DNA from: an uncultured Pseudomonadales bacterium
GTDB taxonomy: Bacteria > Patescibacteriota > Microgenomatia > UBA1400 > PJMF01
DNA length: 64,000 bases
NCBI GenBank assembly: GCA_964393205.1
Contig: CAYMSV010000003.1
Location: 34,608-98,607 of the forward strand
Direction of reading: 5' to 3'
Shown: piece by piece, positions 24,480 through 48,602 of the stretch
Position numbering within the stretch: the stretch's first letter is position 1
Layout: each line of letters starts with the position of its first letter
Notes under the pieces: model-generated
What the model saw: only the letters and a program-made list of their open reading frames with translations
Told to the model about the DNA's origin: nothing
The model's database searches: none
Translations under genes and position numbers: made by a program

Positions 24480-24480
24480 T

Positions 24481-26318: not shown

Positions 26319-26348
26319 AAAAAGCACTCTCAATTGAGAGTGCTTAAA
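26319..26348 (-). terminator. Rho-independent terminator for minus-strand gene 26390-26812
   Basis: GCACTCTCAATTGAGAGTGC palindrome flanked by A/T runs. Confidence 0.6.
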
Positions 26349-26389
26349 AAACTTTTATTTTATAACTTAAAGTTAAAATTTAGTTAAAA

Positions 26390-26812: not shown

Positions 26813-26921
26813 ATTCCCCTTCTATAAATGCTATTTATTAACATCATTTTATCTGTATGTCTGTGAAAATGCTAGTTATAAACTGTAGAGTCGACAACAT
26901 CATTTCATTAATCTGATATTA

Positions 26922-27152: not shown

Positions 27153-27193
27153 ATCACCTTTAATCTAAAAATTTACAATCTATAATAACCTTT

Positions 27194-28075: not shown

Positions 28076-28089
28076 ATTACTAAACTGAA

Positions 28090-29187
28090 ATGGAAAATAG
28101 ATATCTTAAACCTAAACAATACTATATTGACCTCTACGATTTATTCACCATAAAAGAATGCCTAGATTGGTATTGGAAACTAAAAGAAGGCATGGAAAAA
28201 CACCGTGATGAACTAAAAGAAAAAGAACCTAAAACAGATTTTGATCATGAAGTTCACAAATGTTGCAGCTATGCAGTTAATGTAATAAAAGGCGAAAGAT
28301 ATCGTAGAAAGGCAGAAACCATTCAAAAATGGATAGATAAAGATAAAAAAAACCAAGACATCTTTGATAAAGCCACTCCCCACTCAGATATTCTCTGCAA
28401 AAAATGTGGAGGTAAGACCAAAATAATCCATAAAACTTTACATAGTGAAGATGAAAACAATCCAAGAATTTCTTTCATGTTTGAGTGTAAGAAATGTAAC
28501 AAAAGACAAATTTTTTATAGTGATGGTTCTCCTTGGGATTTTGAAAGGGAAAAGTGTCCTGACTGTGGAATTGAACTTAAAACAGAGTACGAAGATGATG
28601 AAAAAAATGAAATATTAATTACAACTGATTACTGTCTCAAATGTGATTATAAGAAAGTTGATGTAACTAATTTCAAAAAGAATCGGGAAGAACGAGAAGA
28701 AGAAAAACAAAAAGATGAGGCTTTACTAAAAGAATATCGTGATGAGTTTTGCTGGAATGACAAAGATGGCCAACAATATATAAGCACAATGGAAACTCTA
28801 AAAAACTTATACGAAGAAGCTGAACAACAAAAGAAAAAAGAAAAAGATCCAAATTACCAAAAAACTAAAAAACTAAAGAAACTTAAAATCAATCAACTAA
28901 AAGAACTACTTTCAGAAAAGTTAAATAAGCAAAAATATATTGATCTTCAATTTGGGAAACCAGAAATTGGAAAGTATGTTGTAGTAGATTTTACTGTTAA
29001 TGACACAAACAATGATCGATCTGAATATGATAGTAATAAACAATTAAAAAAACTAATACAGAATACATTAATCAAAACAAATTGGAGATTAATGAGTGAC
29101 GGGATTAGTTATCGCATAGGAATCTTAAGTGGAAGACTTAAGGCTTATGAAAGAGATGATGATTTAATGAAAATTATTAAAAATTAA
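28090..29187 (+). CDS. Hypothetical protein with four CxxC zinc-ribbon pairs and K/E-rich coiled-coil
   Basis: CKKCGG...CKKCNK...CPDCG...CLKCDY. Confidence 0.4.
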   Translation: MENRYLKPKQYYIDLYDLFTIKECLDWYWKLKEGMEKHRDELKEKEPKTDFDHEVHKCCSYAVNVIKGERYRRKAETIQKWIDKDKKNQDIFDKATPHSDILCKKCGGKTKIIHKTLHSEDENNPRISFMFECKKCNKRQIFYSDGSPWDFEREKCPDCGIELKTEYEDDEKNEILITTDYCLKCDYKKVDVTNFKKNREEREEEKQKDEALLKEYRDEFCWNDKDGQQYISTMETLKNLYEEAEQQKKKEKDPNYQKTKKLKKLKINQLKELLSEKLNKQKYIDLQFGKPEIGKYVVVDFTVNDTNNDRSEYDSNKQLKKLIQNTLIKTNWRLMSDGISYRIGILSGRLKAYERDDDLMKIIKN

Positions 29188-29207
29188 TTATTAATATAGA
29201 CAAAAAT

Positions 29208-30587
29208 ATGATAAAAAATAGTTCAAATTTAAAAAAATTATTGCAAAAATTCAAAGAATCTGGTTTTGAATTAATACAATCTAAAGATAAATCATATTTC
29301 TACATAAAAAATGAAAAAGAAGAAGCAAAAATACTAGAAATTAAAGATAGTGAATATATATTACATCTTTTGAAGATAGAGGAAAACAATTCTATTATTT
29401 ATCAAAAGGGTTTTAAATATTTAATTTCTGAAAAGGATTTTGATTTATTATCGATTTTGTACTTCAAAGAAAAAAAATATCAACTATCAGCTGGATGGCA
29501 ATTCAGAAGAATAAATAATCTTGGAGAGGATATTGAAAAATTAATTATTAAACAAAAATATAAACAAAAAAGAATTAACAAAAAAGGTAAAAGTCTAACA
29601 ATTTCTCCAAATATATACTCACTTATCCTTAAAGATATATGGCGTGCTGAAGATAAATCAAGAAAATATAAATCATCAGTACGAAATTATCTTTTAAATG
29701 ACCTAACTGGAGAATACTCTTCAAAAAAAATTAAAGATACTACTTCATTAAACAAAGGTGAATATGAATTCATAACACATAGATTTAATTTAAAAACAAA
29801 AAATAAACGTAAAGACTATCTTAAATACTTAAACAAAAATGACATCAATTCTCTACAATATTTATTTCTAAAAATGGTTAAAAATAAAGTTTTTGATGAC
29901 AAATATTTAAAGAAACTAAATAACTTTTTCAAAAAAGAAAATCTTAGAGAAATCATAAGTCTAGGAAATGAGATATTAAGTTTAGGTGTTACAGATTTAA
30001 GTACAAAAAAAGCAAAAGCCACAGTAAAAAAAATTACTGAAAAAAAAGTTGCAAAGCTTGAAGGTCTTTGGCAAGAATATTTTGAACAATATTTGTTATT
30101 ATTAATATTTTCTTACAAATCAATTCATCCAAAAATCAAACTAAATAATATTGATTCAGATAAAAACTATCCAGATTTCATTGGAATAAATCATTATAAT
30201 GGCTTAGATGTTATAGAGATAAAAACTCATTTAAAAAAAGCACTAACTTATGATTCGAGTCACGATAATTTTAGTTTTTCCTCTGAATTGAGCAAAGCTA
30301 TTATACAAACAACAAATTACATGGATCAAATAGTTGCAGAAAATTTCAAGAAAAGTTCTGATAAAACAAAAATAACTTCATCAATTCATGAAGAAAATTT
30401 ACATAGACCTAGAGGAATAATCATTATCTCATCTTATGAACATCTAACAACTGACATGTCATCAAGAAATAAGGATAAACTAACTAGAGATTTCACCAAA
30501 CTTAGAAATAGTCTACATAATATACAAATTCTAACCTTTGATGAAATACTTAATACAGCAAGTGACTATCTAGATAATGTTGTATAA
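29208..30587 (+). CDS. Hypothetical protein with C-terminal PD-(D/E)xK nuclease-like motif (Shedu/DUF4263-like candidate)
   Basis: C-terminal NYPDFIGINHYNGLDVIEIKTHLKK...AIIQTTNY resembles D...(D/E)xK...Q restriction-endonuclease fold. Confidence 0.35.
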   Translation: MIKNSSNLKKLLQKFKESGFELIQSKDKSYFYIKNEKEEAKILEIKDSEYILHLLKIEENNSIIYQKGFKYLISEKDFDLLSILYFKEKKYQLSAGWQFRRINNLGEDIEKLIIKQKYKQKRINKKGKSLTISPNIYSLILKDIWRAEDKSRKYKSSVRNYLLNDLTGEYSSKKIKDTTSLNKGEYEFITHRFNLKTKNKRKDYLKYLNKNDINSLQYLFLKMVKNKVFDDKYLKKLNNFFKKENLREIISLGNEILSLGVTDLSTKKAKATVKKITEKKVAKLEGLWQEYFEQYLLLLIFSYKSIHPKIKLNNIDSDKNYPDFIGINHYNGLDVIEIKTHLKKALTYDSSHDNFSFSSELSKAIIQTTNYMDQIVAENFKKSSDKTKITSSIHEENLHRPRGIIIISSYEHLTTDMSSRNKDKLTRDFTKLRNSLHNIQILTFDEILNTASDYLDNVV

Positions 30588-30611
30588 ATAAACTATATAA
30601 AATATATATTT

Positions 30612-30794
30612 ATGATAAAACCAATAAAAGTTGATGCACTGAATATGACAAATCATGCATATTTTGAATGCAAAAATTGCAATCTAAAAAGTGAGATGTT
30701 CTTAAAAAATAAAATTAGTGTTGATGAGAAAAATGATACTCAATATTTAAATACAATGCCATGTCCTAATTGCAATAAAAAGCTTGGCAAATAG
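30612..30794 (+). CDS. Small zinc-ribbon protein (60 aa)
   Basis: CKNCN...CPNCNKK. Confidence 0.3.
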   Translation: MIKPIKVDALNMTNHAYFECKNCNLKSEMFLKNKISVDEKNDTQYLNTMPCPNCNKKLGK

Positions 30795-30811
30795 TCTATA
30801 TTGTTCATGGC

Positions 30812-31681
30812 TTAATTTAAATCTTCTGGTAAGAGGCTATCAATATGCCACTCATCATTAAATAAAGCAGAATTATTTTCATTAATTCTTGAAATATCTC
30901 TATCTCCATAACTATCTTTAGTTTTTTCAAAACGACTAATTCCAAAATTAATTGCTAAAACTTCGGCAGATTTTGCTGTATTTGATAACCCAAGTTTTAT
31001 TAACTCCTCAGAACTAATCCACAAATAATATTCATGAAATTGATTTTTTTCACCAAATTGATTTGTAACCCAGAAACCACCTTGCTTACTCTTAAAACGC
31101 AAGCTAACTCGCCATGCCTTTTGAGAACTAGAGTAAGGACATGAATGTTCTGCCACTATCATGAGTCCTGGAATTAATATTTTTGAATACTTTTCTTCCC
31201 ACCAATCAGGATTTTCTATTAAACAAAATTGTTCATTTACCATTTCAAATGTAAATCTCTCTCCATCGCTAGGATTGCTACTATCAATTGTTTCTTTGAT
31301 TTTTTCTATGGCTAACTTTTCAATTTCTTCCTTTTTTAAATGATGGGAATTTAGTATGGAGATAAAAAAGATAAAACCAATAAAATCATCTTCACTTTTT
31401 TTAACAATAAATCTTGCCATTCTTTCAAAACTAGCACTTAGAGTGACAACTCCTTTCAAATCCCAATAAATTTTATAACCATGATGATTAATAGGAGTAT
31501 CATATTCCCCTAATTTTTTATTTTCCAAAAAATTCAATATTACTTTTAATTCATACCTTCGATCACCTCTGTCATTAACTCTTACAGAATTTAAAGTCCC
31601 ATTTCTATCCCAACGTCTTAAAGTTTCAGGGTGAATATTTAACATTTCTGCTGCTTCACTTATGGTAAGTAAGTTTTTCAT
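30812..31681 (-). CDS. Excisionase/MerR-family HTH protein with C-terminal unknown domain
   Basis: LTISEAAEMLNIHPETLRRWDRNGTLNSVRVNDRGDRRYE (HTH_17 excisionase-type). Confidence 0.55.
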   Translation of the reverse strand: MKNLLTISEAAEMLNIHPETLRRWDRNGTLNSVRVNDRGDRRYELKVILNFLENKKLGEYDTPINHHGYKIYWDLKGVVTLSASFERMARFIVKKSEDDFIGFIFFISILNSHHLKKEEIEKLAIEKIKETIDSSNPSDGERFTFEMVNEQFCLIENPDWWEEKYSKILIPGLMIVAEHSCPYSSSQKAWRVSLRFKSKQGGFWVTNQFGEKNQFHEYYLWISSEELIKLGLSNTAKSAEVLAINFGISRFEKTKDSYGDRDISRINENNSALFNDEWHIDSLLPEDLN

Positions 31682-31790
31682 AACTTATACTAAGTTATAC
31701 TTAATTAAACAAAATGTCAAGAGATAAAAAAGCACAACATTTTTTTAAACTGTCTCATTTGTCTTGTTTCTGTTATAAACATAATTAGAG

Positions 31791-31896
31791 GTCTCTATAG
31801 TTCAATGGATAGAATAGAGTCTTGCTTAAGATCATAAGCTTATCAGTTTGTGTTTTTAACAAGACTAAGATGGTGGTTCAATTCCACCTAGAGATA
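31791..31896 (+). tRNA. tRNA-like gene with aberrant 50-nt anticodon region (pseudo-tRNA or insertion/intron-containing tRNA)
   Basis: Acceptor GTCTCTA/TAGAGAT (G1-U72), D-arm TAGTTCAATGGATAGAAT, T-arm GGTGGTTCAATTCCACC; 7-bp stem AGTCTTG/CAAGACT encloses 35 nt. Confidence 0.4.
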
Positions 31897-31916
31897 CAAA
31901 TGTTATAACGATATAT

Positions 31917-31949
31917 GAGTTCCAGACCCATATGCTCCGCCATTTTAAT
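31917..31949 (+). repeat. Direct repeat R2 (candidate att core)
   Basis: See R1. Confidence 0.6.
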
Positions 31950-35553: not shown

Positions 35554-36378
35554 ATGTTAAATAGAAAGACGAGGGCTAGATTTTATCAAAAAGCCCCGGC
35601 TAAATTTTTATTAAAGAAAGCTAAGAGCCTGAGAAAGTTGGCTATTGCTTCTTTTATATTTAGTTTGGTGTTTATGTTTTTAAGCAATCCTTTTCTTACT
35701 CTGGCAAAATTTAAAGATTTACCAAACACACTAAACAGCTCAAAAGCAATCATTGCTAGTATTCCTGAATTTATTAGAGATATACCTCAAGAAGCAGAAA
35801 AAAGTAGCTTTGATTTTTTTGATTGGACAAAGATGCAGTTAGATAATTCTTGGCCAATTTTTGCTAGAGAAACAGTTGAAGAAAATCAAGAGGCTGGTCA
35901 GAGTGCTATCCCTCAAGTTATAGTGGCTCCAGACTACGCCAATTTACCTTTTCATATTGAAATTCCTAGTTTAGAGATTTATGAAGAGGTTCATGCCAAT
36001 ATTAACCCTAATAAACCCTCAGAATATAAGGAAGCTCTAGAAACTGGCGTAGCTCATGCTCGTAATTCAGCTTTTCCTGGACAAGACAAATTAATTTATA
36101 TTTTTGGTCATTCAACCAATGGCTTGTGGAATGTAGAGGCTTACAATGCGGTTTTTTATCAGATTAAGGATTTAGCGCTGGGCGAGCAAATTATTTTACA
36201 TTTAGGTGAAGAGCAGTTCGTTTACCGAGTGAGCGCTCAAGATATTATCCAAAGCAGCGAAGTGGATTTTGTTAATAATCTAAAAGATGAAAACATTTTG
36301 TTATTACAAACCTGTTGGCCTCCGGGCACTACTTGGCAAAGACTTTTTGTCAGTGCGGTGCCAGTGATTATTGAATAA
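35554..36378 (+). CDS. Sortase-family transpeptidase
   Basis: N-terminal TM; His (YIFGHST), catalytic Cys in LLLQTCWPP (TLxTC), downstream Arg (TWQRLFV). Confidence 0.65.
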   Translation: MLNRKTRARFYQKAPAKFLLKKAKSLRKLAIASFIFSLVFMFLSNPFLTLAKFKDLPNTLNSSKAIIASIPEFIRDIPQEAEKSSFDFFDWTKMQLDNSWPIFARETVEENQEAGQSAIPQVIVAPDYANLPFHIEIPSLEIYEEVHANINPNKPSEYKEALETGVAHARNSAFPGQDKLIYIFGHSTNGLWNVEAYNAVFYQIKDLALGEQIILHLGEEQFVYRVSAQDIIQSSEVDFVNNLKDENILLLQTCWPPGTTWQRLFVSAVPVIIE

Positions 36379-36379
36379 T

Positions 36380-36419
36380 ATCCCATAATGTTGACAATAT
36401 AATATTATAAATATATAAT
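36380..36419 (+). promoter_or_regulatory. Sigma70-type promoter with upstream conserved ATCCCATAAT element
   Basis: -35 TTGACA 36391-36396, 17-bp spacer, -10 TATAAT 36414-36419; ATCCCATAAT 36380-36389. Confidence 0.6.
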
Positions 36420-36461
36420 ATATAGTCCAATATATATAAAAGTAGTTTTTTAAAGACTAAT

Positions 36462-37139
36462 ATGAAAAAAATAATTTCTTACCTTTTAATAGCCACTGGC
36501 TTTTTATTGTTTTTCGCAAATCTAGCTAGCGCCAAAGAATGTCGTACTGTTTACGGTGGTGGTGAAGTTTGTGAAACCGGCAGCATTAGTTTAGATAAAA
36601 AGGTTTTTAATCCAAAAGCTGAACAATATTGGGATAATATTGCTGCTAGTTCTTATGCTTTTTCTCCAAAAGAAGAAGTTAAGTTTAGTTTAAGAATCAA
36701 AAATATTTCAGATATTAAAGTTGACAGCGTTCGTTTAGATGACGACTTCGCTCGCTTAATTGATTACATGATTTATGTAAGTAGTGATAAAGGCGATTAT
36801 GAAGTTGAAGTCAAAGATAATGTTATTAAATTTAAGCTTGGTGATTTAGATGGCAAAGAAGAGCTTACAGTTTACTTTACAGCTCGTTTCAAAGACGCAG
36901 ATGAATTACCAGTCGGTACCACTTGTATTACTAATGTAGCTCGCGCTTATTCTGATGAAGATAATTTAAGCGATACCGATTATGCTAGTTTTTGTGTCAA
37001 GACCGATGAGGCTAAAATTGTTACTGAAGTCACTCCAGACACTGGTTTTGATTTAAGCACTATTTTAGCTCTAGAAGCGATGGCTTTAGCTGGTTTAGGT
37101 GCTTTTGCCCTAACTAAGTCAAAGAAAATCAGTAAATAA
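36462..37139 (+). CDS. Sortase substrate: secreted surface protein with C-terminal TPDTG sorting signal
   Basis: Signal peptide; C-terminus VTPDTG + hydrophobic stretch + KSKKISK tail. Confidence 0.55.
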   Translation: MKKIISYLLIATGFLLFFANLASAKECRTVYGGGEVCETGSISLDKKVFNPKAEQYWDNIAASSYAFSPKEEVKFSLRIKNISDIKVDSVRLDDDFARLIDYMIYVSSDKGDYEVEVKDNVIKFKLGDLDGKEELTVYFTARFKDADELPVGTTCITNVARAYSDEDNLSDTDYASFCVKTDEAKIVTEVTPDTGFDLSTILALEAMALAGLGAFALTKSKKISK

Positions 37140-37161
37140 TTAGCATTTTTTAATTGAATTG

Positions 37162-37192
37162 AAAAACCCCTCTTCAAAAAAGAGGGGTTTTT
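37162..37192. terminator. Bidirectional rho-independent terminator
   Basis: AAAAACCCCTCTTCAAAAAAGAGGGGTTTTT. Confidence 0.85.
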
Positions 37193-37300: not shown

Positions 37301-37655
37301 TCTATCTAGTTATGATAACTTTTTAGTAGAGAGCAGGCCTCGATGTAATAATGCTTGTTTCTTGAAACACATTTCTTCATCAAAGTCTTTTCTCTGCTCG
37401 AAAGAGTAGAAGAAGGAGCTCTTTAAGCAGCTCTTAAAACCCGGAAATTGCTTCTGGAGTTTTGATTAGCTTACTAAAGAGACGCACCTTAACAATTGGA
37501 GGAAAATGCTTTAGGCATTTAGGTCCAGCTTTTGTGACAATCATTGCAATGAATGGTTGTTAGAGAAGCTGGTCCTTCGTGCCGAAAGGCAAAGGGACGA
37601 GTCGGTGACCACTGACGCCCATGTGGAGATTTTAACCTATAAAAAGGAGAATACC

Positions 37656-38174
37656 GTGCGTACAAAAATTTTTTTTGTTGTATTTGTTCTGGCCAGCATC
37701 ATGCTGGCAGCCTGCGGCGCGAAAGATGTGCCTACAGGTGATGAATTAAGCACTGAGCTAACTGAGCCGCGGGTAGTGGTGGTAACAGCCACTCCTGCTC
37801 CAGTCAAATTAGCTGGAATCGATGGGCTCGAAAGTCCTCGTTTGCACCATGCAGGGGAACACCCCGCTGGAGAATCCAGTGTTGGTATGTTTGACATTGG
37901 AGTAAACGAAGGTCAGTATGGCCTGGTGTTTGGTTGGAACCTTGCTTGGGGTGCACAAAGTATCCCCGGTGAAGGCTGTGAACTCGTTGTTCTCGTATCA
38001 GGATGGTATGAGGACTTTGAGATTACAGATGGTCGTTACGAGGTTTATGACCTCCCGGCGGCCGATCCCTCTGGTTGGGCAGAAGTTTTGCTCAGCCAAC
38101 GGATAGAAGAGCAGGCCACCCACTATGGATGTCCCGCTGATAAAGTCCCCCCAGTTTGGGAGGGTGGCAAATAG
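37656..38174 (+). CDS. Lipoprotein, unknown function; GC-rich (foreign-composition) gene
   Basis: GGAG RBS then GTG start; lipobox LAAC; local GC ~50% versus ~33% background. Confidence 0.55.
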   Translation: MRTKIFFVVFVLASIMLAACGAKDVPTGDELSTELTEPRVVVVTATPAPVKLAGIDGLESPRLHHAGEHPAGESSVGMFDIGVNEGQYGLVFGWNLAWGAQSIPGEGCELVVLVSGWYEDFEITDGRYEVYDLPAADPSGWAEVLLSQRIEEQATHYGCPADKVPPVWEGGK

Positions 38175-38281: not shown

Positions 38282-39148
38282 ATGAAAACTGTCAAAGAAC
38301 AAACACTAGTTTCAATTCTAATGCCTGTTTATAATGCTGAGAAATATCTCAGCAAGACGTTAGAAAGCATTCAATCTCAAACATATAAAAATTGGGAGTT
38401 ATTTGCTATTGATGATTGGTCAACTGATCGATCTTATAGCATTTTATTAGATTTTGCTAAAAAAGATAAAAGAATTAAGCTTTATAGAAATGGTAAGCAT
38501 CGAGGGGTCGCTGGAGCTGCTAATTTGGCTTTATCAATGATTAAAAGTGATTATGTAGCTCGAATGGATGCTGATGACCTAATGCATCCTGAGAGAATTG
38601 CTAAGCAACTTAAATTCTTAAAAGCAAATCCAAGTGTTGTAATTGTTGGTTCACAATGCCTTTTGATCGATCAAGATGGTCAAAAAATTGGTGAAAAAAA
38701 GTTTCCAATGAAGAATGAGGATATCATGAAGATGATTTTTCGCTCAATCCCTATTCAACAACCATCCATGATGATTAATAGAGTTTTGTTGCCAAAAGAT
38801 TTTATTGCTTATGATAAAAGCAAAAACACTGCTGAAGAAGTAGGTCTACTTTTTAAGCTTTTTGAATATGGTGAGGCTGCTAACTTACCCGATTTTTTAC
38901 ACTTTTATCGTTTGCACGATAAAAACACTTCTCTTACAAATCCAAAAAAAACATTTTATTTAACATTTTTAACCCGCTTAAAATATGCCCATCAGGCCAG
39001 TTTTAGTGATTTATTTTTAAATTTTGTACAGTTAGTGATTGTTTTTATTTTGCCTAAAAAACTAATTTTTCCTTTATATAATTTGTGGCGTAATAATAAG
39101 CTGTTAAATTTAAGTGTTCCTTCCCTTACTCGACTTTTCAAAATATAA
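38282..39148 (+). CDS. Family 2 glycosyltransferase
   Basis: SILMPVYNAEKYL...AIDDWSTD, MDADD (DxD). Confidence 0.85.
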   Translation: MKTVKEQTLVSILMPVYNAEKYLSKTLESIQSQTYKNWELFAIDDWSTDRSYSILLDFAKKDKRIKLYRNGKHRGVAGAANLALSMIKSDYVARMDADDLMHPERIAKQLKFLKANPSVVIVGSQCLLIDQDGQKIGEKKFPMKNEDIMKMIFRSIPIQQPSMMINRVLLPKDFIAYDKSKNTAEEVGLLFKLFEYGEAANLPDFLHFYRLHDKNTSLTNPKKTFYLTFLTRLKYAHQASFSDLFLNFVQLVIVFILPKKLIFPLYNLWRNNKLLNLSVPSLTRLFKI

Positions 39149-39158
39149 TTTAATACTG

Positions 39159-42100
39159 ATGATGTTTAAAAAAAAGTTTGTTTTTCCATTTTTATCAGTG
39201 TTTCTTGTTTTTATTCTTTTATTATTTAATTTCAGTTCCGGCACTTTTTTAATTGGTTGGGACAATTTACAAACGGATTTAAATCCAGTTCTTAATTTTA
39301 AGAGAGCTTTAAACGTTTCTTGGCAAGAATATCAGGGGCTTGGATTGCTAGGAGGAATGGGGCATGGGGCAGACTTGATTCGCCAAATGATCCTTATCCC
39401 TTTTTCTCTAGTTTTAAATCAAAACTTACTGCGATATTTTTGGAATTTTTTCGCTCTAGCAATTGGTGTTTTGGGTTTTTATTCTTTACTTACTTACTTG
39501 ACAAAAAATAAACAAGCCTCCTTTTTAGGAGCTTGTTTCTATCTTTTAAATATTGGGACAATGCAAAATTTTTATGTTACATTTGAACCTTTTTCTTCTT
39601 TTTTTGCATTTTTACCATGGTTAATTTATTTTTTATTTAAATATTTAAATAAAGCGAAGAAAAAAACATTATTGATGTTTTTCTTCTTGTCTTTATTAGG
39701 TACAAGCTTTGCTTATGTGCAAACCACATTTTTAGTTTATTTAATTTTATTAGCGATCATTTTGTTATTTTATATTTTCAAAAAGAATATTGTTTCTAAA
39801 AAAGAGAAAGCTCTTAATTCTTTAAAAATTTTAATTATAGTTTTTTTAACAAATGCTTTTTGGCTTTTACCGCTGTCATTGTTTACTTTGAAAAATATTG
39901 ATACAACGATCAAGGCTAAAGGTAATCTGATGACTACGGAGCCTGTATTTTTACGCAACAATAAATTTGGTAACTTTCGTGATCTTATTCAACTAAAAGG
40001 CTATTGGTTCGATTTTACTGATTTTGATCAATGGGGTAATGCAGTTTTTTTACTTGAAGACTGGAAAGTTCATTTTCAAAATCCCCTGATTACTTCTTTT
40101 TCTTTTATTTATTTTGCCCTATTATTACTGGGAATTACTTCTATTTTTACTTTAAAAAAGTTACCTAGTGCAATGAAACGAGCGCGTTACTCGATTCTGG
40201 CTTTGTTTTTATTCTCTTGTTTTATTCTTCTTGGCTCTAACCCACCATTTGGATTTATTTATGACTTTTTACGTGAAAACTTGCCTCTTTTTGGCCAAGT
40301 TTTTCGCTCCTCTTTCACCAAATGGATTGTGCCCTACAGTCTTTTTTATAGCTTGCTCTTAACTTTTGGTTTAGCTTTCCTTTTCAGCATTTTTAAAAAG
40401 AAGATTTGGCAGCGCCTAGTAGCCGGAGCCTTTTTTCTTTCTCTAATTTTCTATTCCCTACCTAGTTTTACTGGTAATTTCTTTTATTCTCGTCTTAGGA
40501 TAGCAGTTCCTGATGCTTATTTTCAGTTATTTGATTATTTTAAAGACGAGGCTCCACAAAGTAGCAGGATTGCTAATTTACCCCAACACTCTTTTTATGG
40601 TTGGCAATGGAATGATTGGGGTTATCGAGGCTCTGGATTTATTTGGTACGGTATTAAACAGCCCATTTTAGATCGAGCTTTTGATGTTTGGAGTGAGGCC
40701 AGTGAGCGTTATTACTGGCAATTACAGGCGGCTTTGGATAAAAAAGATATTGGTGCGCTGGAAAATGTTTTAGCCCAATACGATGTTGATTATTTACTGC
40801 TTGATGGGTCGATTATCAACCGTAACACCAAGAAGCCTTTTAATTATCAAGCGATAAAAGATCTCTTACTTAGTTCGGAACAGATTAAACTAGTCGAAGA
40901 ATTTGATTTTATTAGTTTATATACTTTTAGCGATTCAGAAAAAAGTCGTGAAAAGAATTTTATTAGTTTGTATAAAGATTTACCAATTATAGTTAATGAT
41001 TATCGTTTTACTTGGGAAGATAAAGCTTTCATAAGTTTTCACGACTATTTGAATAAAGAAAATATTGATCAAGCTGAAGTAATATTTCTCTTTTCTTCAT
41101 TGTTTAGCAATCATTTACAAAAAGATTTGGAATTTACTTTGGGTGAAGATGATAACTATTTTTATTTAACTAATTTAAGAGATTCTAGCGCTAATAACTT
41201 TCAACTTAATTTGCCAGATCTATTGGGTACTGAAACTCACCTGCCATTTCGTTTATCCTGGTTGACGGACGAGAATATGGTGAAATTAAACTTTACTTTG
41301 CTAGCTCCAGAAATTGATAGCGCCAAACAAAAAATCAATTTTAACTTAGTAGAAGACTTTGTTTTTAACATTTCACCATGTTCAAGCAGTGAAGTTTGTT
41401 ATATCAATATAAACAACCAGCTAATTAGCCAGATCAATGAAGGTGGTGAGCTTGATTTGCTGTTAAATACCGATTTACCAAACACTATTGCTTTAAGTAC
41501 CGATTCAAAAATTGACTATTTTGACTTTGCTTTTTTTGATTTAGAACTTGAAGGCATAGAAATTACTAAGGAGGTTTTGCCAGAAAACCCTGGCTTTAGA
41601 GTCAAAATCCCAAAAATTTTATTGCAAAGCAACCTTTTAGAAACCGAACTTAATTTGAGTGAGGCCGAGGACTGTCGGCCGCTACAAGAAGGTTTTGTTG
41701 CTAAAGAACAGCGCTCTGAGGGCAATTATTATCGCTCAGTTGACACCAGTGTTTGCGATCACTTTTATTTAGAAAATTTAGATCACTCTGTTGGCTATTT
41801 GTTTAAATTAAAAGCGCAAAATATTAGCAGTTTGCCCTTGGTTTTTGCTGTCCAAGCAGATAGTTTAGGGCGCAGTCCACTGGAGACTTATTTAAGTGAA
41901 GGTGTAAATTACCAAATTTTGCCTCCAACGGAAGAGTTTAATCAGGGCTATACTTTGTATTTTTCTACTGATTCCTATGGTAGAGAAGTTAATGAAAACC
42001 TTTTAGAGTCGGCAGAAGTGTTTTTTTGGCCATATCATTTTTTGAAAAATATTGCTTTGCAAAATATAGACAGGGATTTTTTTAAAAATGAAATGGTTAA

Positions 42101-42434
42101 TTGTGACTTTGAAGTCAAAAAAAGTGCTCTTTGGTTATATCGAGTGAGCTTGAGTAGCAATTGTGATGCTAATTATTTAAAGCTATCTCAAGCTTATGAT
42201 AGTGGCTGGTTAGCATATCAAGCTGGGCAAAGACTTGAGCATCGAAAACTTAATAATTGGGCTAATGCTTGGATTTTAAATAATCAAGACAGCGATTCTC
42301 TAATTTATATTTTTTATTGGCCACAATTTTTACAATATTTTGGCTTCTTAGCAATTGCGCTTGGTTTCATTGGAATATTTTATTGTGACAGAAAGAAGCC
42401 TATTACTGATTTAGACAAAAAAACTAATCAGTAA
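39159..42434 (+). CDS. Large polytopic membrane protein, YfhO-like (GT-C fold candidate) with large extracytoplasmic C-terminal domain
   Basis: >12 predicted TM helices in first ~480 aa, ~600-aa soluble C-terminal domain ending in TM; start ATG 39159. Confidence 0.45.
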   Translation: MMFKKKFVFPFLSVFLVFILLLFNFSSGTFLIGWDNLQTDLNPVLNFKRALNVSWQEYQGLGLLGGMGHGADLIRQMILIPFSLVLNQNLLRYFWNFFALAIGVLGFYSLLTYLTKNKQASFLGACFYLLNIGTMQNFYVTFEPFSSFFAFLPWLIYFLFKYLNKAKKKTLLMFFFLSLLGTSFAYVQTTFLVYLILLAIILLFYIFKKNIVSKKEKALNSLKILIIVFLTNAFWLLPLSLFTLKNIDTTIKAKGNLMTTEPVFLRNNKFGNFRDLIQLKGYWFDFTDFDQWGNAVFLLEDWKVHFQNPLITSFSFIYFALLLLGITSIFTLKKLPSAMKRARYSILALFLFSCFILLGSNPPFGFIYDFLRENLPLFGQVFRSSFTKWIVPYSLFYSLLLTFGLAFLFSIFKKKIWQRLVAGAFFLSLIFYSLPSFTGNFFYSRLRIAVPDAYFQLFDYFKDEAPQSSRIANLPQHSFYGWQWNDWGYRGSGFIWYGIKQPILDRAFDVWSEASERYYWQLQAALDKKDIGALENVLAQYDVDYLLLDGSIINRNTKKPFNYQAIKDLLLSSEQIKLVEEFDFISLYTFSDSEKSREKNFISLYKDLPIIVNDYRFTWEDKAFISFHDYLNKENIDQAEVIFLFSSLFSNHLQKDLEFTLGEDDNYFYLTNLRDSSANNFQLNLPDLLGTETHLPFRLSWLTDENMVKLNFTLLAPEIDSAKQKINFNLVEDFVFNISPCSSSEVCYININNQLISQINEGGELDLLLNTDLPNTIALSTDSKIDYFDFAFFDLELEGIEITKEVLPENPGFRVKIPKILLQSNLLETELNLSEAEDCRPLQEGFVAKEQRSEGNYYRSVDTSVCDHFYLENLDHSVGYLFKLKAQNISSLPLVFAVQADSLGRSPLETYLSEGVNYQILPPTEEFNQGYTLYFSTDSYGREVNENLLESAEVFFWPYHFLKNIALQNIDRDFFKNEMVNCDFEVKKSALWLYRVSLSSNCDANYLKLSQAYDSGWLAYQAGQRLEHRKLNNWANAWILNNQDSDSLIYIFYWPQFLQYFGFLAIALGFIGIFYCDRKKPITDLDKKTNQ

Positions 42435-42451
42435 TTTGCTATACTAGAGAA

Positions 42452-44593
42452 GTGCTAAAAAATCACATCCTGCTTAAGGTTAAAACCAGCAAAGACAGCC
42501 AAGAGACTGAGGAGTCAGCTGTTCAACTTTTTTCTACCCTGCCTAAGTTAAAAAATAAGCTGACTGATAAGCTGCTGGGTAAAAACGAAAGACTTAGTTT
42601 TGAAATCTTGGTTAGAGAACAAAATATTCATTTTTTAGTTTGTGTCCCCCTGCGCCTTTTAGAATATTTTAAAGGAGCTATTCATGCTAGTTATCCAGAA
42701 GCAGTAATTGAAGAACTTGCTTATGATCCAGCAATTTGGTTTTTTGCTAAAAACTACCAAGTGTCTGTGGCTAGTCTTAAATTAAAAAATAAGAGTTATT
42801 TGCCCCTTAAAACTTACAAAGATTTTAAGGACATTGATCCATTATCAACTTTAATGTCTACTCTATCTAAAAACGAAGGTCAAGATACTATTTTGATCCA
42901 AATGCTTTTAAACAATCAAGTTAGTGTTTGGTCAAAAAGCTATCAGGCTTCTATTGAAGAGTTAGAAAATCATCCACAAAAGAAGTTGATTGGTCAAAAA
43001 ATGGAACAACGATCGCTCAAAGTTGCTTTTAAAATAGCGGTTGCCACAGATAATCGGCAAAAAAGCAAGCTAATTTTAGATAACATCGCTGCGGCCTATC
43101 AAGCCATGTCTCAGAGTGAGAGCAATGCTTTGCTTTTAAAGAAAAGACATTTTTTTAAAAAATCTTTTCTCAAAAAAATGCAAGAGCGAAGTTTCAGCGC
43201 TTCGCCGAATTTAAACTTAAGTTTAGATGAATTGGCCACTCTTTATCATTTTCCCAGTCAAAAATTAAGTAATATTACTAATATATCTTGGGGTAAAAAA
43301 TTACTTGGTGAGGCTCCAGAAAACTTGCCGACTATCACCCGCGACAGTTCAGTTCAAAGAAAAAAGGATATTAATATTATTGGTGAAACAGTTTATAAAA
43401 ATCGTCTAACTAAGTATGGTTTATGGAGTGAAGATCGCCGCCGCCATGTTTATGTAATTGGTAAGACTGGCACCGGTAAATCTACTTTATTGGCTAATAT
43501 GGCAATTAATGACCTCAAGCACAATGAAGGAATGTGTGTAATTGATCCTCATGGTGATCTGGTAGAAACTTTACTCGATTTTATTCCTAAGCATCGAATT
43601 AACGACGTGGTTTATTTTGATCCAGCAGATACTGAAAGAACGGTGCAAATCAATCTTTTTGAAGGAGAAAATGTGGTGCATCGTGAGCTAATTGCCTCTG
43701 GCATTATTTCTGTTTTTAAAAAGCTCTATGGCTATTCTTGGGGGCCAAGGTTGGAATATATTTTGCGTAATTGCTTACTAACCTTGCTTAAAAGTCCAGA
43801 AGCAAAATTGTCAGATATTTTAGACTTATTAACCAATGAAAAATTTCGCGAAAAAGTAGTTAACAAACTTGATGATCCAATTTTGAAAAACTTTTGGGTC
43901 AATGAATATAACAAAATGCATGATCGTCAACGCCAAGAACAAATTGCTTCAATCCTCAATAAAGTTGGTCAATTTGTTTCTTCACCACTGGTGCGCAATG
44001 TGGTTAATACCACTCAGTCTTCTTTCAGCATCGAAGAACTAATGAGTCAGGGCAAAATTTTATTAATAAATTTATCTCAAGGTCGCTTAGGTGAAGATAA
44101 TGCTACCCTTTTGGGTGCGATGATGATTACCAAGATTCAGTTAGCAGCTATGGGTAGAGTTAATGTTAGTGAAGATAAGCGACCCGACTTTTATCTCTAC
44201 GTTGACGAGTTTCAAAATTTTGCCACCGATGCTTTTATTAAGATTCTTTCCGAAGCTCGTAAATATCATCTTAATTTAACTTTAGCCAATCAATATATAG
44301 ATCAAATTCCCGAAGAGGTGCGCAATGCTATTTTTGGCAACTGTGGCAACATCATTAGTTTTGTAATGGGAGCTGGTGATGCTAGTTATTTTCAGGCTGA
44401 ATATGGAGGACTTTATACTCAAGACGATTTAGTTAATTTAGATAAATATCAAATTATTAATAAAATTTCTATCAATAATGTTTTGAGTAGGCCGTTTCCT
44501 GCTTATACTTTGCCTCTAGCTAAGAGTAGCAACCGAAATCGAGAAAAAGTAATTCGCAACAGTCGGGAGCGATACGCTAAAAAGAGAAATTAG
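42452..44593 (+). CDS. HerA/DUF87-family P-loop ATPase with ~330-aa N-terminal domain of unknown function
   Basis: Walker A VIGKTGTGKST, hallmark IDPHGD after Walker A, Walker B LYVDEFQNF. Confidence 0.55.
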   Translation: MLKNHILLKVKTSKDSQETEESAVQLFSTLPKLKNKLTDKLLGKNERLSFEILVREQNIHFLVCVPLRLLEYFKGAIHASYPEAVIEELAYDPAIWFFAKNYQVSVASLKLKNKSYLPLKTYKDFKDIDPLSTLMSTLSKNEGQDTILIQMLLNNQVSVWSKSYQASIEELENHPQKKLIGQKMEQRSLKVAFKIAVATDNRQKSKLILDNIAAAYQAMSQSESNALLLKKRHFFKKSFLKKMQERSFSASPNLNLSLDELATLYHFPSQKLSNITNISWGKKLLGEAPENLPTITRDSSVQRKKDINIIGETVYKNRLTKYGLWSEDRRRHVYVIGKTGTGKSTLLANMAINDLKHNEGMCVIDPHGDLVETLLDFIPKHRINDVVYFDPADTERTVQINLFEGENVVHRELIASGIISVFKKLYGYSWGPRLEYILRNCLLTLLKSPEAKLSDILDLLTNEKFREKVVNKLDDPILKNFWVNEYNKMHDRQRQEQIASILNKVGQFVSSPLVRNVVNTTQSSFSIEELMSQGKILLINLSQGRLGEDNATLLGAMMITKIQLAAMGRVNVSEDKRPDFYLYVDEFQNFATDAFIKILSEARKYHLNLTLANQYIDQIPEEVRNAIFGNCGNIISFVMGAGDASYFQAEYGGLYTQDDLVNLDKYQIINKISINNVLSRPFPAYTLPLAKSSNRNREKVIRNSRERYAKKRN

Positions 44594-45240
44594 TGAAGAA
44601 AAATTTTTCAACAGTCACTGATGAAAACAAGAAACCTTGGTGGGTATATATTGCTGAATGTAGTGACGGCACTTACTATACTGGCATCAGCAACGATATT
44701 AATAAAAGATTAGATAAACACAATACAGGTTGTGGAGCTCAATATACAAAAAATCGCAATCCTGTTAGTCTTGTATATTTTGAAAAACATTTAAATCGAT
44801 CCTTAGCAACAAAAAGAGAATATCAGATTAAACAATTAACTCGTCAAGAAAAAGAGAAATTAGTTGATGGTTTCTTATCAAATGCGGCCGGCTTAAAGGA
44901 AAATTTTTTATCAATTAATAAAATGCCAGCCGATAGCTTTGGTTTGAAAATTATCATCAAAAATCAAGAAAATCAGGAGCTAGCTCGTGCTTTTTTATAT
45001 ATTATGCAAAATGACTTGCATGAGCGACCATTTGCTTTATTGGAAGATGTTTTTGTAGAGTCAGAAAATCGCGGACAGGGCTTGGGTACGCAATTAATTA
45101 AAAAAGCTATTAGTGAAGCCAAGAATTTGAATTGTTATAAATTAATAGCCACCAGTCGTTATCAGCGAGCTAGAGTTCATAAGCTTTATCTTGACTTGGG
45201 TTTTAAAGATTGGGGTCAAGAATTTCGTTTAGACTTTTAA
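44593..45240 (+). CDS. GIY-YIG nuclease (YhbQ/UPF0213-type) fused to GNAT N-acetyltransferase
   Basis: WWVYIAECSDGTYYTGISNDINKRLDKHNTGCGAQYT...REYQIKQL (YhbQ-like); C-terminal GNAT motif A ENRGQGLGTQLIKKAI; GTG start overlaps ATPase stop (TAGTG). Confidence 0.6.
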   Translation: MKKNFSTVTDENKKPWWVYIAECSDGTYYTGISNDINKRLDKHNTGCGAQYTKNRNPVSLVYFEKHLNRSLATKREYQIKQLTRQEKEKLVDGFLSNAAGLKENFLSINKMPADSFGLKIIIKNQENQELARAFLYIMQNDLHERPFALLEDVFVESENRGQGLGTQLIKKAISEAKNLNCYKLIATSRYQRARVHKLYLDLGFKDWGQEFRLDF

Positions 45241-45305
45241 ACTATTCTAATTTTTATTTTTAACTTACAATTGTAAGTTGTAGTAATAGTCTTGTTTAAA
45301 TCTAA

Positions 45306-46958
45306 ATGCCAAGTATTTCCTTTAATAAAAATTCTAACTTTTTAAAACGACTTGCCTCTTATCTAAATTGGAATAATGTTGCTTTAATTTTAATTTTATT
45401 CTTGGCAGTTTTTTTAAGATTTTACCGTTTAGATAAGCAAATTTGGTGGATGAGTGGTGATGATGCTAGAGATATGTTGGTTGTGAGGCATATTGTTGAA
45501 TATGGTGAGACAATCAATCGTGGACCGTTGGCCTTGGGTGGATTTGGTTGGCTCAAAAATTCACCAGTTTACTATTATTTTGTAGCTTTTCTTTGGTTTC
45601 TAACAAACAGTGCTCAGGGAGTAATGTATTTATGGGCTGGTTTATTTACCCTGCCTGTTTTCTTAGCTTATGTGATAGTTAAAAAAATTCATAAAAAAAC
45701 CAGCGCTTTATTGGCAGCTTTGGTTTTTGCAATTAATCCATATATGATTAATGCTGCAAAAAATTTAACCCAAGTTCATTTGTCAGTAATTTTTTCTATT
45801 TTATTTATTTATTTTTTAATTAATTACTTGTCAAGTAAAAAGAAAAGATTGCTTAATCTTTTAGGAATGATTGGTGTTCTATTTTCAGCCTTTCATTTTC
45901 ACTACAACATTATCTTGGTTTTTCCTAGTTTATTTTTTTTGATTTTAATTTTTTATTGGCAACTCAACACTGGACAGAAAAAATTGTTGAGTAAAAACTT
46001 CATTTTACCAATATTATTGGCTTCGATTTTGTTTATATCTTGGATTTTTCTTACTTATACAGTAAAGCTTTTTGATCAGTTTACTTTTTTTGAAATTAAT
46101 AATTCTCTCAATGATAAAATTCTTTCTACAACAATTCTTCATTTTTTTGATTCAAACAAGTTAGTGTTCAAACTAATATGGGGCGAGTCTTTAGCAACAA
46201 TTATGATTCTGCCGACTTTGATCTTGTTGCTATTTTTAATTTTGAAAAAGGCCTATTTAAAAAATCTGCTGTTAAAAAAAAGTATAAAATATTTTTCACT
46301 CATCTTAAGCTCTTTGTTTTTGATATTTTTTTATCAGGGGTCAGTTGAAGATACTTACTTTTTATTTTTATTGCCAATTATTTTGATAATGCTGACACTA
46401 GCATTGGTTTTATTATTGGAGCAAATGAAGTATTTGGCTTGGCCAATTATTGTTCTTATTATTTTTTTAATGTTTGATTCTGGAATTAAATATAATTTTA
46501 ATAATTTTTATCCTTTGCCCGTCTACGAAAAAAAGAGATTTTTAGCTAAATTAATCGCTAGTGATTATTTTAAATTATATCCATCTAGTAAAATTACTGA
46601 GCAACCTAGGTTTTTATTGAGTTGGGACAGTCAGGTTTTTTATTTTATGAATGATTCCTGGGGTAATTCTGGAGTTTGGTTTCATTTGGAGGATGTTTTT
46701 GCTCAGCAGCTAGTAAAATTAGTTAATTATGGACCAAATTATCAATCAAAAATTGAGAATCCCCAAGTTATATATAGTATTTGTCACCATGATAATAATT
46801 ATGCGAAGGTTTCCAACTGTTTAAAAAATTTTATGGAAAAATATCCTGTTCATGAAACAGATATTTATAAATTGTATGAAGATGAGGAAGTAGCTCTGCT
46901 GCGTGCAAAAATAAGTATAAGTTTGAATAACGCTTTGCTTAATACTCCCAATTATTAG
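45306..46958 (+). CDS. GT-C membrane glycosyltransferase (ArnT/PMT-like, GT39/GT83)
   Basis: ~12 TM; first-loop motif SGDDARDMLVVRHIVEYGET...GGFGWLKNSPVYYY. Confidence 0.6.
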   Translation: MPSISFNKNSNFLKRLASYLNWNNVALILILFLAVFLRFYRLDKQIWWMSGDDARDMLVVRHIVEYGETINRGPLALGGFGWLKNSPVYYYFVAFLWFLTNSAQGVMYLWAGLFTLPVFLAYVIVKKIHKKTSALLAALVFAINPYMINAAKNLTQVHLSVIFSILFIYFLINYLSSKKKRLLNLLGMIGVLFSAFHFHYNIILVFPSLFFLILIFYWQLNTGQKKLLSKNFILPILLASILFISWIFLTYTVKLFDQFTFFEINNSLNDKILSTTILHFFDSNKLVFKLIWGESLATIMILPTLILLLFLILKKAYLKNLLLKKSIKYFSLILSSLFLIFFYQGSVEDTYFLFLLPIILIMLTLALVLLLEQMKYLAWPIIVLIIFLMFDSGIKYNFNNFYPLPVYEKKRFLAKLIASDYFKLYPSSKITEQPRFLLSWDSQVFYFMNDSWGNSGVWFHLEDVFAQQLVKLVNYGPNYQSKIENPQVIYSICHHDNNYAKVSNCLKNFMEKYPVHETDIYKLYEDEEVALLRAKISISLNNALLNTPNY

Positions 46959-46976: not shown

Positions 46977-48602
46977 TTAAAGCAAGTCTGCATATACATA
47001 ATTAAGGGGTTGAGTTTGTTGTTCTTCATCAAGCTGAAACTTCCAAAGTGTAAATTCAGCTGAACTATAAATTACTTTTGGTTCCTCTGTTAAATATGAT
47101 CTTACTGACCGGAATCTTTCTAAACATTCTGTCTCAATTAATTCTGGATTTGATCTGTGGTCACATGCGAAGTAAATAAGAGAAATATTATTAGAATCCG
47201 TGTTAATGTCTGGAAAAAAATTAACTCCATGATCAGTGAGACTTACCAGTTTTCTATCTAAAAAAATTTCTAAATGATACCATAAACCACTGGTCCCCCA
47301 TAAATCATAAGGCATATTTTTTATTGTTGTTAATAAAGCTAGAGAAAATTGCTTAGAATTTTCTGATTGATTAAGTTTTAAGTCGTCAAAAATTGTTTTA
47401 GCCATCAAATATTTCTGATTATGATATGAGATTTTTGGAGTATTATCTGTTTTATAAAATTTTATTGAGGAATAAAAAATTAAGCATATTGTTGTAGTAA
47501 TTAACAGGCCAGGAAAGAAGTTTATTTCTATGAGAATGCGTAAAGCTATCGCTATAGAAATTATGAAAAATGGTAAAACAGCAGCAATATAGGTGTGAGT
47601 AATAAAACCTCTAGATAAAAAAATAAATGATAATGAAAATGACATTGAAAGAGGAATTGCAACAAGTATAAAATTTATCTTATTACGATAATTTACAATC
47701 AGCCAATAAATTACAATACCAATAAAGAAAAGTGTTAGAACGCTTGATTGAATTAGGCTTGAATTAAACCACCATAAACTTTCACTTAGAACTATTGAAA
47801 TTTCTCTAGAAAGATTGCTAAGAGGCTGAATTTTTTCTGAGAAATTAAAGCTTAAAAAATATATTTGATCTAGAGGAAAATTTCTATAAGTTAAAAAAAC
47901 CCAAGAACCGATAATTAAAAAAATTAAAATTATGGGAACATAAATGTTAGCCCATTTTGATTCGTTGTCTATTAGTAAGAACCAAGAATAGATAATCCAA
48001 AAAATTCCTATTGGCAGAATAAGAAATATTCCATAATGAAAATGCAAGCCAAAAAGTAAAAAAAATATTGATAAACAAAATGATAAAAGTTTTTTGTTTT
48101 TATAAAAATTGCTTAAAGATAATAAAAACAATACAGAGAGAAGTGGTAGTAAAAATGGTTGTAATAGCTCTTGACTCTGGTTGATTAGTGTTGGATGAAG
48201 GGCGAATAAAGCAGCAATAATTAATCCAAGTTTTTTGTCCCAGATTGTTTTTCCCAACAAATAAGCAAGTGGGATTATAGAGCTTAAAAGAAAAGACCAT
48301 ACAATCATGAAATTTATTGGGTTTTTTGTAAAAAACCAAATGATAGAAAGAAAATAGTAGTAAATTGGGGAGTTTTGTAACCAATTGAAGCCACCAGCGG
48401 CTAGAGGACCTTTGAAAATTGTTTCAGCATGTGCGACTATGTGCTTAGCTACCAACATGTCTCTGCTCTCATCAAAACCTCTTTGTGCCCAAATCCATCT
48501 ATCAAGGTCATGTAGTCGTAAATATATGCCTAAAACTACAATCAATAAAAACATTAAATTATAATTGTTTTTTTTGAAAAAGTTGAAAACTTTAGTAACC
48601 AC
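46977..48602 (-). CDS. GT-C membrane glycosyltransferase (ArnT/PMT-like), paralog of 45306-46958
   Basis: GFDESRDMLVAKHIVAHAET...GGFNWLQNSPIYYY, same motif set as convergent neighbour. Confidence 0.6.
   Translation of the reverse strand: MVTKVFNFFKKNNYNLMFLLIVVLGIYLRLHDLDRWIWAQRGFDESRDMLVAKHIVAHAETIFKGPLAAGGFNWLQNSPIYYYFLSIIWFFTKNPINFMIVWSFLLSSIIPLAYLLGKTIWDKKLGLIIAALFALHPTLINQSQELLQPFLLPLLSVLFLLSLSNFYKNKKLLSFCLSIFFLLFGLHFHYGIFLILPIGIFWIIYSWFLLIDNESKWANIYVPIILIFLIIGSWVFLTYRNFPLDQIYFLSFNFSEKIQPLSNLSREISIVLSESLWWFNSSLIQSSVLTLFFIGIVIYWLIVNYRNKINFILVAIPLSMSFSLSFIFLSRGFITHTYIAAVLPFFIISIAIALRILIEINFFPGLLITTTICLIFYSSIKFYKTDNTPKISYHNQKYLMAKTIFDDLKLNQSENSKQFSLALLTTIKNMPYDLWGTSGLWYHLEIFLDRKLVSLTDHGVNFFPDINTDSNNISLIYFACDHRSNPELIETECLERFRSVRSYLTEEPKVIYSSAEFTLWKFQLDEEQQTQPLNYVYADLL

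Follow-up and report, generated by a model that had tools for sequence, protein, structure and literature searches.

The closest described relatives of the gene considered here are the VirD4-type coupling proteins of type IV secretion systems (T4CPs) that are encoded in Patescibacteria, also called the candidate phyla radiation (CPR). The coupling-protein passages of a recent survey report 5,713 T4CP homologues in 2,918 of 3,035 Patescibacteria genomes, place only 148 of them near virB4, describe relaxases as almost absent from these bacteria, and speak of "orphan T4CP homologues" (Quinonero-Coronel et al. 2025, PMC12102498). Here we describe a gene of this kind in a stretch of 64,000 nucleotides of the Patescibacteria contig CAYMSV010000003.1, referred to below as the window. 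The gene encodes an ATPase of 713 aa (42452..44593, + strand, GTG start), and its stop codon overlaps the start of a second gene, for a 215-aa protein that joins a GIY-YIG nuclease domain to a GNAT acetyltransferase domain (44593..45240, + strand, GTG start). We conclude that the ATPase is a soluble T4CP-like motor conserved across Patescibacteria chromosomes, in an ordinary locus, and that the two genes are probably unrelated in function, having become operon neighbours by coincidence in one narrow Patescibacteria clade.

Like the published orphan T4CPs, the window ATPase is a CPR chromosomal gene with a T4CP signature, away from virB4 and without a relaxase (PMC12102498). We found no substantive difference between them, the DUF8128 family of the window protein and the published hidden Markov model (HMM) set being equated by description. 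As far as those passages go, the orphan T4CP family itself is already known, and what this locus adds is a domain fusion restricted to one clade. The VirB4-like N-terminal fold and the missing transmembrane (TM) anchor, described below, are observations on the window protein and do not appear in the coupling-protein passages of the survey. Mildly new are the recognition that DUF8128 has the VirB4 N-terminal fold, and the full-length homology of the CPR orphan T4CPs to coupling proteins of monoderm plasmids.

The ATPase is soluble, as no 19-residue segment reached the Kyte-Doolittle threshold of 1.6 that was used to call TM segments. Residues 1 to ~300 (42452..43351, + strand) form an alpha/beta domain with the fold of the VirB4/TrwK N-terminal domain. 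This domain had been left unassigned in an earlier interpretation made from the DNA letters (hereafter the sequence-only reading), and the precomputed annotation of an identical protein (P0001) assigns it to Pfam PF26449 (DUF8128), listing this model together with PF10412 and PF01935 for this protein and for nearly all listed homologues. The Pfam run made here returned no PF26449 match on the ATPase, and that copy of Pfam possibly does not contain the model. Literature searches for DUF8128, for YhbQ with GIY-YIG and for UPF0213 found no papers. The nucleotide-binding domain is of the FtsK/HerA superfamily, with a Walker A motif GKTGTGKST at residues 337-345 (43460..43486, + strand), IDPHGD at residues 364-369, and a Walker B region YLYVDEFQNF at residues 581-590 (44192..44221, + strand). 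These motifs, already picked out correctly in the sequence-only reading, were read from the translation and are invariant in all 25 homologues of an alignment covering 62-95% identity to the window protein, including D585 and E586 of Walker B. Between Walker A and Walker B lies an all-alpha insertion (residues 406-532; 43667..44047, + strand), the counterpart of the T4CP all-alpha domain, so that the nucleotide-binding domain has the composition expected of a T4CP.

Profile searches placed the protein in the same family. In Pfam, DUF87 (3.6e-10) and TrwB_AAD_bind (5.5e-10) matched equally strongly, followed by TraG-D_C (3.3e-5), and the scores of the last two exceed their Pfam cut-offs. The best NCBIfam matches were the VirD4-like CD1115 (1.3e-14), TraD and CedD, although the curated equivalog cut-offs were missed (53.9 versus 250 for CD1115, 42.7 versus 366 for SXT_TraD and 37.9 versus 600 for CedD). 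No VirB4 sequence model was present among the Pfam and NCBIfam matches at E <= 0.01, and TrwB was the only PDB sequence matched by a profile of the ATPase family. The figures tabulated for the ATPase against known proteins, for which the unit is not stated, were 18.0 for the VirB4 C-terminal domain, 17.9 for TrwB, 16.4 for DotL, 15.9 for DptH, 14.1 for Cag-beta, and 11.7 and 10.6 for HerA. Judged by its profile matches, the ATPase is a member of the T4CP superfamily and of no named equivalog. It combines a VirB4-like two-domain soluble architecture with a T4CP-like sequence: unlike VirB4 and TrwK, it is grouped with the T4CPs by sequence profiles, and whereas the canonical TrwB, VirD4 and TraD proteins have an N-terminal TM anchor, it carries instead the soluble domain of ~300 aa.

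Homology over the full length of the ATPase, N-terminal domain included, was found to proteins on 682 plasmids from Bacillus, Streptomyces, Staphylococcus, Clostridium, haloarchaea and Sulfolobus. On the Embleya (Streptomycetaceae) plasmid NZ_CP108778, the T4CP homologue (812 aa, E 7e-77, aligned from query residue 22) stands in the order PrgI, XF1762, ATP-binding protein, T4CP homologue, relaxase, NlpC/P60. On the B. subtilis plasmid NZ_CP154917, the homologue is annotated as 'DUF87 protein' (885 aa, E 1e-48, aligned from query residue 42, no TM segment), with a relaxase of the replication-relaxation family directly 3', then conjugal-transfer proteins and an 847-aa ATP-binding protein. Both homologues are 25-28% identical to the window ATPase, and both lie directly 5' of a relaxase. 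The sequence-only reading, which favoured a HerA-type protein, had named homology of the N-terminal domain to coupling proteins of type IV secretion systems (T4SS) as evidence that would speak against it, and this homology is what the plasmid proteins present. The monoderm (MPF-FATA type) plasmid T4CPs share full-length homology with the window protein and, in Bacillus, its lack of a TM segment. They differ in having a relaxase directly 3', VirB4-size ATPases in the vicinity, and PrgI (Embleya) or conjugal-transfer proteins (Bacillus), none of which is near the window gene, and in being plasmid-borne, whereas the window ATPase is a vertically inherited chromosomal gene. Among the 30 larger open reading frames (ORFs) of the window scanned with Pfam, there was no relaxase, VirB4, VirB6 or PrgI, and no second paralogue of the ATPase is present in the window.

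The family is very widely distributed in the CPR. More than 7,700 homologues were found in a collection of 5.8 billion proteins, and all those carrying a source name are from CPR/Patescibacteria, with a near-constant architecture of PF26449, PF10412 (TrwB_AAD_bind) and PF01935 (DUF87), with or without PF12696 (TraG-D_C). At least 599 loci were counted in species-representative genomes of Microgenomates-type and Parcubacteria-type lineages, Berkelbacteria, Dojkabacteria and others, and distant CPR homologues are ~62-65% identical with long invariant stretches. A scan of IMG/VR gave no relatives of the family and consequently no sign of a phage or mobile-element origin. In three basal CPR loci (L076, L080 and L082) two DUF8128 ATPase paralogues stand in tandem, the neighbouring ORF of ~815-834 aa aligning with the window protein along its whole length at 31-34% identity. 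The proteins of ~815-858 aa adjoining the ATPase in these loci had been considered as VirB4 candidates and were rejected as tandem paralogues of the same family.

A further parallel is found in CedD/TedD of the archaeal Ced DNA-import system, a VirD4-like ATPase encoded apart from its partners and in some orthologues devoid of a TM segment (PMC11823120). The NCBIfam CedD model matches the window ATPase at 8.5e-10, with a score of 38 against a cut-off of 600 and over residues 271-382 only, and the DNA-import role may be carried over to the window protein as an analogy.

The pairing of the ATPase with a nuclease gene is a separate matter. The overlap reported by the sequence-only reading is real: direct reading of the junction gives AAT TAG TGA AG, so that the TAG stop (44591-44593) and the GTG start (44593-44595) have one G in common, forming TAGTG at 44591..44595 on the + strand. 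The same overlap is found in locus L010 and in the sister genome L089, which was fetched separately. Conservation of the pair was surveyed in 81 non-redundant loci across Patescibacteria, L089 not among them, with ATPases 34-83% identical to the window protein. Using tblastn and jackhmmer, a GIY-YIG gene was found 3' of the ATPase in two of the 81, the window lineage (L001-L003) and L010. L089 also carries the pair, the overlap and the synteny, with an ATPase 94.7% identical, and these two loci and L089 belong to one genus-level clade. When the two ORFs 3' of the ATPase at each locus (145 proteins) were searched with Pfam, the GIY-YIG domain appeared in the window lineage only, and no nuclease family was recurrent among them. 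In relatives whose ATPases are 82%, 64% and 64% identical, the ATPase gene is followed by a convergent radA, and a GIY-YIG gene is missing. In L010, with an ATPase 83% identical, the TAGTG junction is followed by a GIY-YIG domain of ~100 aa without GNAT, and this copy (10126-10437) is in a frame one base off the GTG of the TAGTG, with a run of seven A (10168-10174) just downstream; this offset is either an assembly error or the mark of a decaying gene. Between the window and L089 the identities are 94.7% for the ATPase, 93% for the GT2 glycosyltransferase, 81% for the GT-C membrane protein gene, 76.6% for the GIY-YIG-GNAT protein and 70% for PMT_2. The conservation that the sequence-only reading would have expected in other genomes was thus confined to a single clade, and the pair is not a conserved system.

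Some considerations nevertheless weigh against our view of the locus. A stop/start overlap kept in three related genomes is what translationally coupled functional partners would look like. Conjugative plasmids fill the slot directly 3' of the T4CP with a DNA-processing relaxase, and a nuclease in that position could be meaningful, the more so with its catalytic residues intact in a 29-sequence alignment. On the side of the ATPase, DNA translocation by the CPR T4CP-like family would follow only from homology, and the DUF8128 family fits the published T4CP homologue set by description (PMC12102498). The overlap, the plasmid relaxases and the intact catalytic residues, together with the near absence of relaxases from Patescibacteria in the survey's account (PMC12102498), would also suit a lineage-specific module in which the nuclease, placed in the relaxase slot, nicks or processes DNA and the T4CP-like ATPase translocates it, in export or uptake. 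We consider such a module quite unlikely, given that the pair is confined to one genus-level clade, that the closest ATPase relatives outside it (82% identical) have no GIY-YIG gene, that the nuclease evolves much faster than the ATPase (76.6% versus 94.7% between the window and L089), and that the L010 copy does not share the reading frame of its start codon. The chemistry also argues against it, because GIY-YIG enzymes hydrolyse DNA and form no covalent DNA adduct of the kind that relaxases use for piloting. Highly improbable, in our estimation, is the more specific proposal that the GIY-YIG-GNAT protein and a relaxase-less T4CP-like motor, translationally coupled, make up a minimal "nick/cut and translocate" module with which an epibiotic CPR bacterium takes up or exports DNA; if true, this would offer a non-covalent way of processing substrates in place of the relaxase-dependent one.

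The second gene of the pair is indeed the fusion of a YhbQ-type GIY-YIG domain with a GNAT domain that the sequence-only reading had proposed, as seen from Pfam and from PDB sequence matches to UPF0213 proteins. Its GIY-YIG catalytic domain (residues 16-88; 44638..44856, + strand) matches PF01541 at 1.1e-18 (67.7 bits versus a cut-off of 22.6; profile positions 2-77 of 78), and in a PDB sequence search it aligns end to end with the UPF0213 proteins EF2693 (1ywl) and BH0048 (1zg2) at 1e-16. Y19, Y29, G31, R39, H43 and E76 are invariant in the 29 sequences of the subfamily, so that the catalytic Y, Y, R and E, whose loss would have spoken against the sequence-only reading, are all in place and the domain is probably an active nuclease. 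The C-terminal domain (residues 126-215; 44968..45237, + strand) contains RGQGLG at residues 160-165, an instance of the acetyl-CoA motif R/Q-x-x-G-x-G/A of GNATs, and matches Acetyltransf_1, 7 and 10 of Pfam, Acetyltransf_1 at 3.4e-11 over residues 126-204 (43.9 bits versus a cut-off of 20.7). We call it a mini-GNAT because only the C-terminal two thirds of the Acetyltransf_1 profile, positions 40-116, are covered; this half is ~110 aa long and its nearest relatives are stand-alone GNATs of ~110-120 aa.

The catalytic residues are shared with the small UPF0213/YhbQ GIY-YIG proteins (1ywl, 1zg2; SLX1-related), from which the window protein differs by its C-terminal mini-GNAT, an architecture not seen outside the window clade. 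Four clusters formed at 90% identity contain the fusion, each of them 75% or more identical to the window protein, and a HMMER scan of 1.84 billion representatives returned 11,158 matches, the best 150 of which contained no GIY-YIG plus GNAT fusion. Candidates with two matching stretches turned out to be tandem mini-GNATs (P0162, P0164 and P0190), and P0165 a HAD plus GNAT protein; all four were rejected. Pfam was relied on for these domains, since a second GNAT known to be present in L001 escaped a jackhmmer search with the GNAT domain, which is thus insensitive to distant GNATs. The same UPF0213-type GIY-YIG subfamily is found in metagenomic proteins fused to an AGOG 8-oxoguanine DNA glycosylase/lyase (P0155), a NUDIX hydrolase (P0234) and a methyltransferase (P0218). 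Because of these fusions, the subfamily seems to be a promiscuous small repair or housekeeping nuclease, and the sequence comparisons point to no dedicated ATPase effector.

A narrow distribution, an insertion site that coincides exactly with the stop codon of a strongly conserved gene, a GIY-YIG gene that evolves faster than its neighbours and an apparently frameshifted copy in L010 might also be expected of a selfish, free-standing element resembling a homing endonuclease, inserted at the 3' end of a conserved gene and with no cellular function linked to the ATPase. This is unlikely in our view. Proteins of the UPF0213 type consist of the catalytic domain only and have none of the DNA-binding modules found in homing GIY-YIG enzymes, members of the subfamily occur widely as small chromosomal genes and also in fusions with repair enzymes, and the window contains no second copy and no evidence of a target site.

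The sequence-only reading had presented the two genes as a possible new variant of the defence-type pairs made of a HerA-like ATPase and a nuclease, and this proposal fails twice, because the N-terminal domain is homologous to coupling proteins and because the pair is not conserved. With HerA-NurA, Sir2-HerA (Nezha) and DUF4297-HerA the locus has in common the P-loop fold of the FtsK/HerA superfamily and an adjoining nuclease gene. An anti-phage pair of this type, in which the ATPase ring activates or loads a nuclease effector, could draw on the DUF87 match (3.6e-10), on PADLOC matches to mad8 (2.2e-15) and, weakly, to HerA models, and on a Shedu-containing island ~12 kb upstream. However, the PADLOC matches are confined to the ATPase region (residues ~327-640), except for one marginal PprDinG alignment (E 0.0078) that starts earlier, and PADLOC matched neither the GIY-YIG-GNAT protein nor the 1106-aa protein encoded upstream. 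The N-terminal domain is VirB4-like and not the HAS barrel of HerA, the HerA_antiphage model scores 16 bits against a cut-off of 800, and the closest relatives in both structure and sequence are proteins other than HerA. The ATPase is also conserved phylum-wide, whereas defence genes typically have a patchy spread; no partner nuclease is conserved with it (GIY-YIG at two of 81 loci, none recurrent among the 145 neighbours), and no matches were found in the viral contigs of IMG/VR. A HerA-type defence pair is therefore extremely improbable.

No conserved partner of the ATPase came to light. All-versus-all clustering, iterated HMMs and Pfam searches of 145 downstream and 135 upstream neighbours revealed no universal partner across the 81 loci. 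The neighbours are lineage-specific housekeeping genes such as radA, rho, obg, an M23 peptidase gene, a coaD-like gene and those for YidC, SPFH, MreC and YebC. Downstream, the commonest were RadA (10), cytidylyltransferase-like proteins (9), YtxH (6) and DUF11 (5), and upstream they included PrgI-domain proteins (7), Rho, sortase, YidC, GT2, SPFH and others. A protein combining PrgI (VirB3-like) with CarboxypepD_reg, a beta-sandwich domain, is encoded divergently and directly upstream of the ATPase in L035 (6425-7888, - strand), L036, L037, L040, L041, L050 and L071, with a length of ~440-490 aa (372 aa in L050); the Pfam run was made on the L035 copy. These seven loci apparently form one Gottesmanbacteria-type group and were counted as one observation. 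In them this protein could serve as a membrane tether for the soluble ATPase.

The genes around the pair are, in order, a sortase, a DUF11 surface protein, a lipoprotein-like ORF, a GT2 glycosyltransferase, a 1106-aa membrane protein, the ATPase, the GIY-YIG-GNAT gene, a PMT_2 gene, a convergent PMT_2-like paralogue and an epimerase. The co-directional genes upstream (38282..42434, + strand; Pfam and TM scan) are context and not partners: GT2 (38282-39148, + strand) and an AftD-like GT-C protein (39114-42434, + strand), polytopic with ~9 TM segments, some homologues of which carry PF11847 or PF10131. Downstream is the PMT_2 GT-C gene (45306-46958, + strand), and tail to tail with it a second PMT_2-type GT-C paralogue (46977-48602, - strand) of 541 aa with 11 TM segments and no Pfam match, 31% identical to the PMT_2 GT-C gene of L089. 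Neither the 1106-aa nor the 541-aa membrane protein had a useful match in PDB sequence searches. From GT2 to PMT_2 (38282-46958) no gap between genes exceeds 65 bp, and none contains a terminator-like site on the + strand, all of the few matches in this stretch being inside coding sequence. For these reasons the pair is probably co-transcribed, and co-transcription of the whole run 38282-46958 is plausible.

Glycosylation genes thus do surround the pair, as the sequence-only reading had it, and its second suggestion was that the ATPase is a VirD4/TraD-like exporter serving them. The family assignment holds, but we saw no sign that the ATPase serves these genes. That it might energise the neighbouring envelope or glycosylation machinery (GT2, the AftD-like GT-C, PMT_2, the sortase and its substrate) is suggested by the adjacency and common direction of GT2, the 1106-aa GT-C gene and the ATPase in the window clade and in the Roizmanbacteria-type L030, L045 and L073, by the presence of the GT-C gene within 8 kb of the ATPase in 13 of 81 loci and of DUF11 sortase substrates likewise in 13, and by the sortase that adjoins the ATPase in several loci. 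These frequencies, however, equal those of unrelated syntenic housekeeping genes in the same loci (rho 15, coaD-like 14, obg 12, radA 10), 356 homologues of the GT-C family were detected compared with more than 7,700 of the ATPase, and the closest homologues of the ATPase are coupling proteins of DNA conjugation. GT-C enzymes use lipid-linked donors, and we know of no need on their part for a cytoplasmic motor of the FtsK/HerA type. We regard an envelope role as very unlikely.

Other features of the window were recorded. The sortase gene and, after it, that of its likely substrate occupy 35554-37187. This substrate is a DUF11 protein of 225 aa that has a signal peptide, a C-terminal TPDTG motif, a TM segment and a basic tail (TPDTG-TM-KSKK sorting signal). 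A sigma-70-like promoter (a perfect 12/12) is at 36391-36419, and 37169-37187 is a bidirectional hairpin terminator. In several CPR lineages, sortase and DUF11 proteins are again encoded beside the ATPase. The lipoprotein-like ORF (37557-38174, 205 aa) has a LAAC lipobox, is rich in Pro, Thr and Val and relatively GC-rich, and is only 48% identical in L089 compared with 88-95% for its neighbours; its product is a fast-evolving surface protein. Further upstream, 19346-31943 is a probable integrated island beside a tRNA-Ser(GGA) gene (19346-19429), with a low GC content of 26-31% and reversed GC skew. It encodes a large serine recombinase (21431-22726, - strand), a ParB-N6/N4 DNA methylase fusion (24888-26210, - strand), a Shedu SduA_C nuclease protein (29208-30587, + strand) and a MerR/HTH regulator (30812-31681, - strand). 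Two 25-nt direct repeats (20483-20507 and 31919-31943, 88% identical) resemble the tRNA 3' end and may be att sites. At 16686-18368 an argininosuccinate synthase carries a C-terminal MGS-like domain (Pfam MGS 9.5e-13), unusual for ArgG.

Returning to the T4CP-like motor and its probably coincidental neighbour, we infer by homology that the ATPase would assemble into a hexameric ring, driven by ATP, and pass on or translocate a substrate at the membrane. This substrate would most likely be DNA, because the nearest relatives outside the CPR are relaxase-linked conjugative coupling proteins. By analogy with the archaeal CedD, the ATPase probably works with a relaxase-less Patescibacteria T4SS or with a DNA-uptake route (PMC11823120). 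In a recent ancestor, a small SLX1/UPF0213-type GIY-YIG gene was probably inserted just 3' of the ATPase stop codon, and its fusion to a mini-GNAT came later. The product would most likely be a nuclease for repair or housekeeping to which an acetyltransferase was added, and no effector of the ATPase.

As a defence discovery, or as a "HerA plus nuclease" discovery, the locus has no importance, because the pairing of ATPase and nuclease is unsupported. It is instead a worked example of how an ATPase/nuclease stop/start overlap can arise by recent insertion without indicating a system. The soluble DUF8128 ATPase with its VirB4 N-terminal fold gives a structural handle on a near-universal CPR gene.

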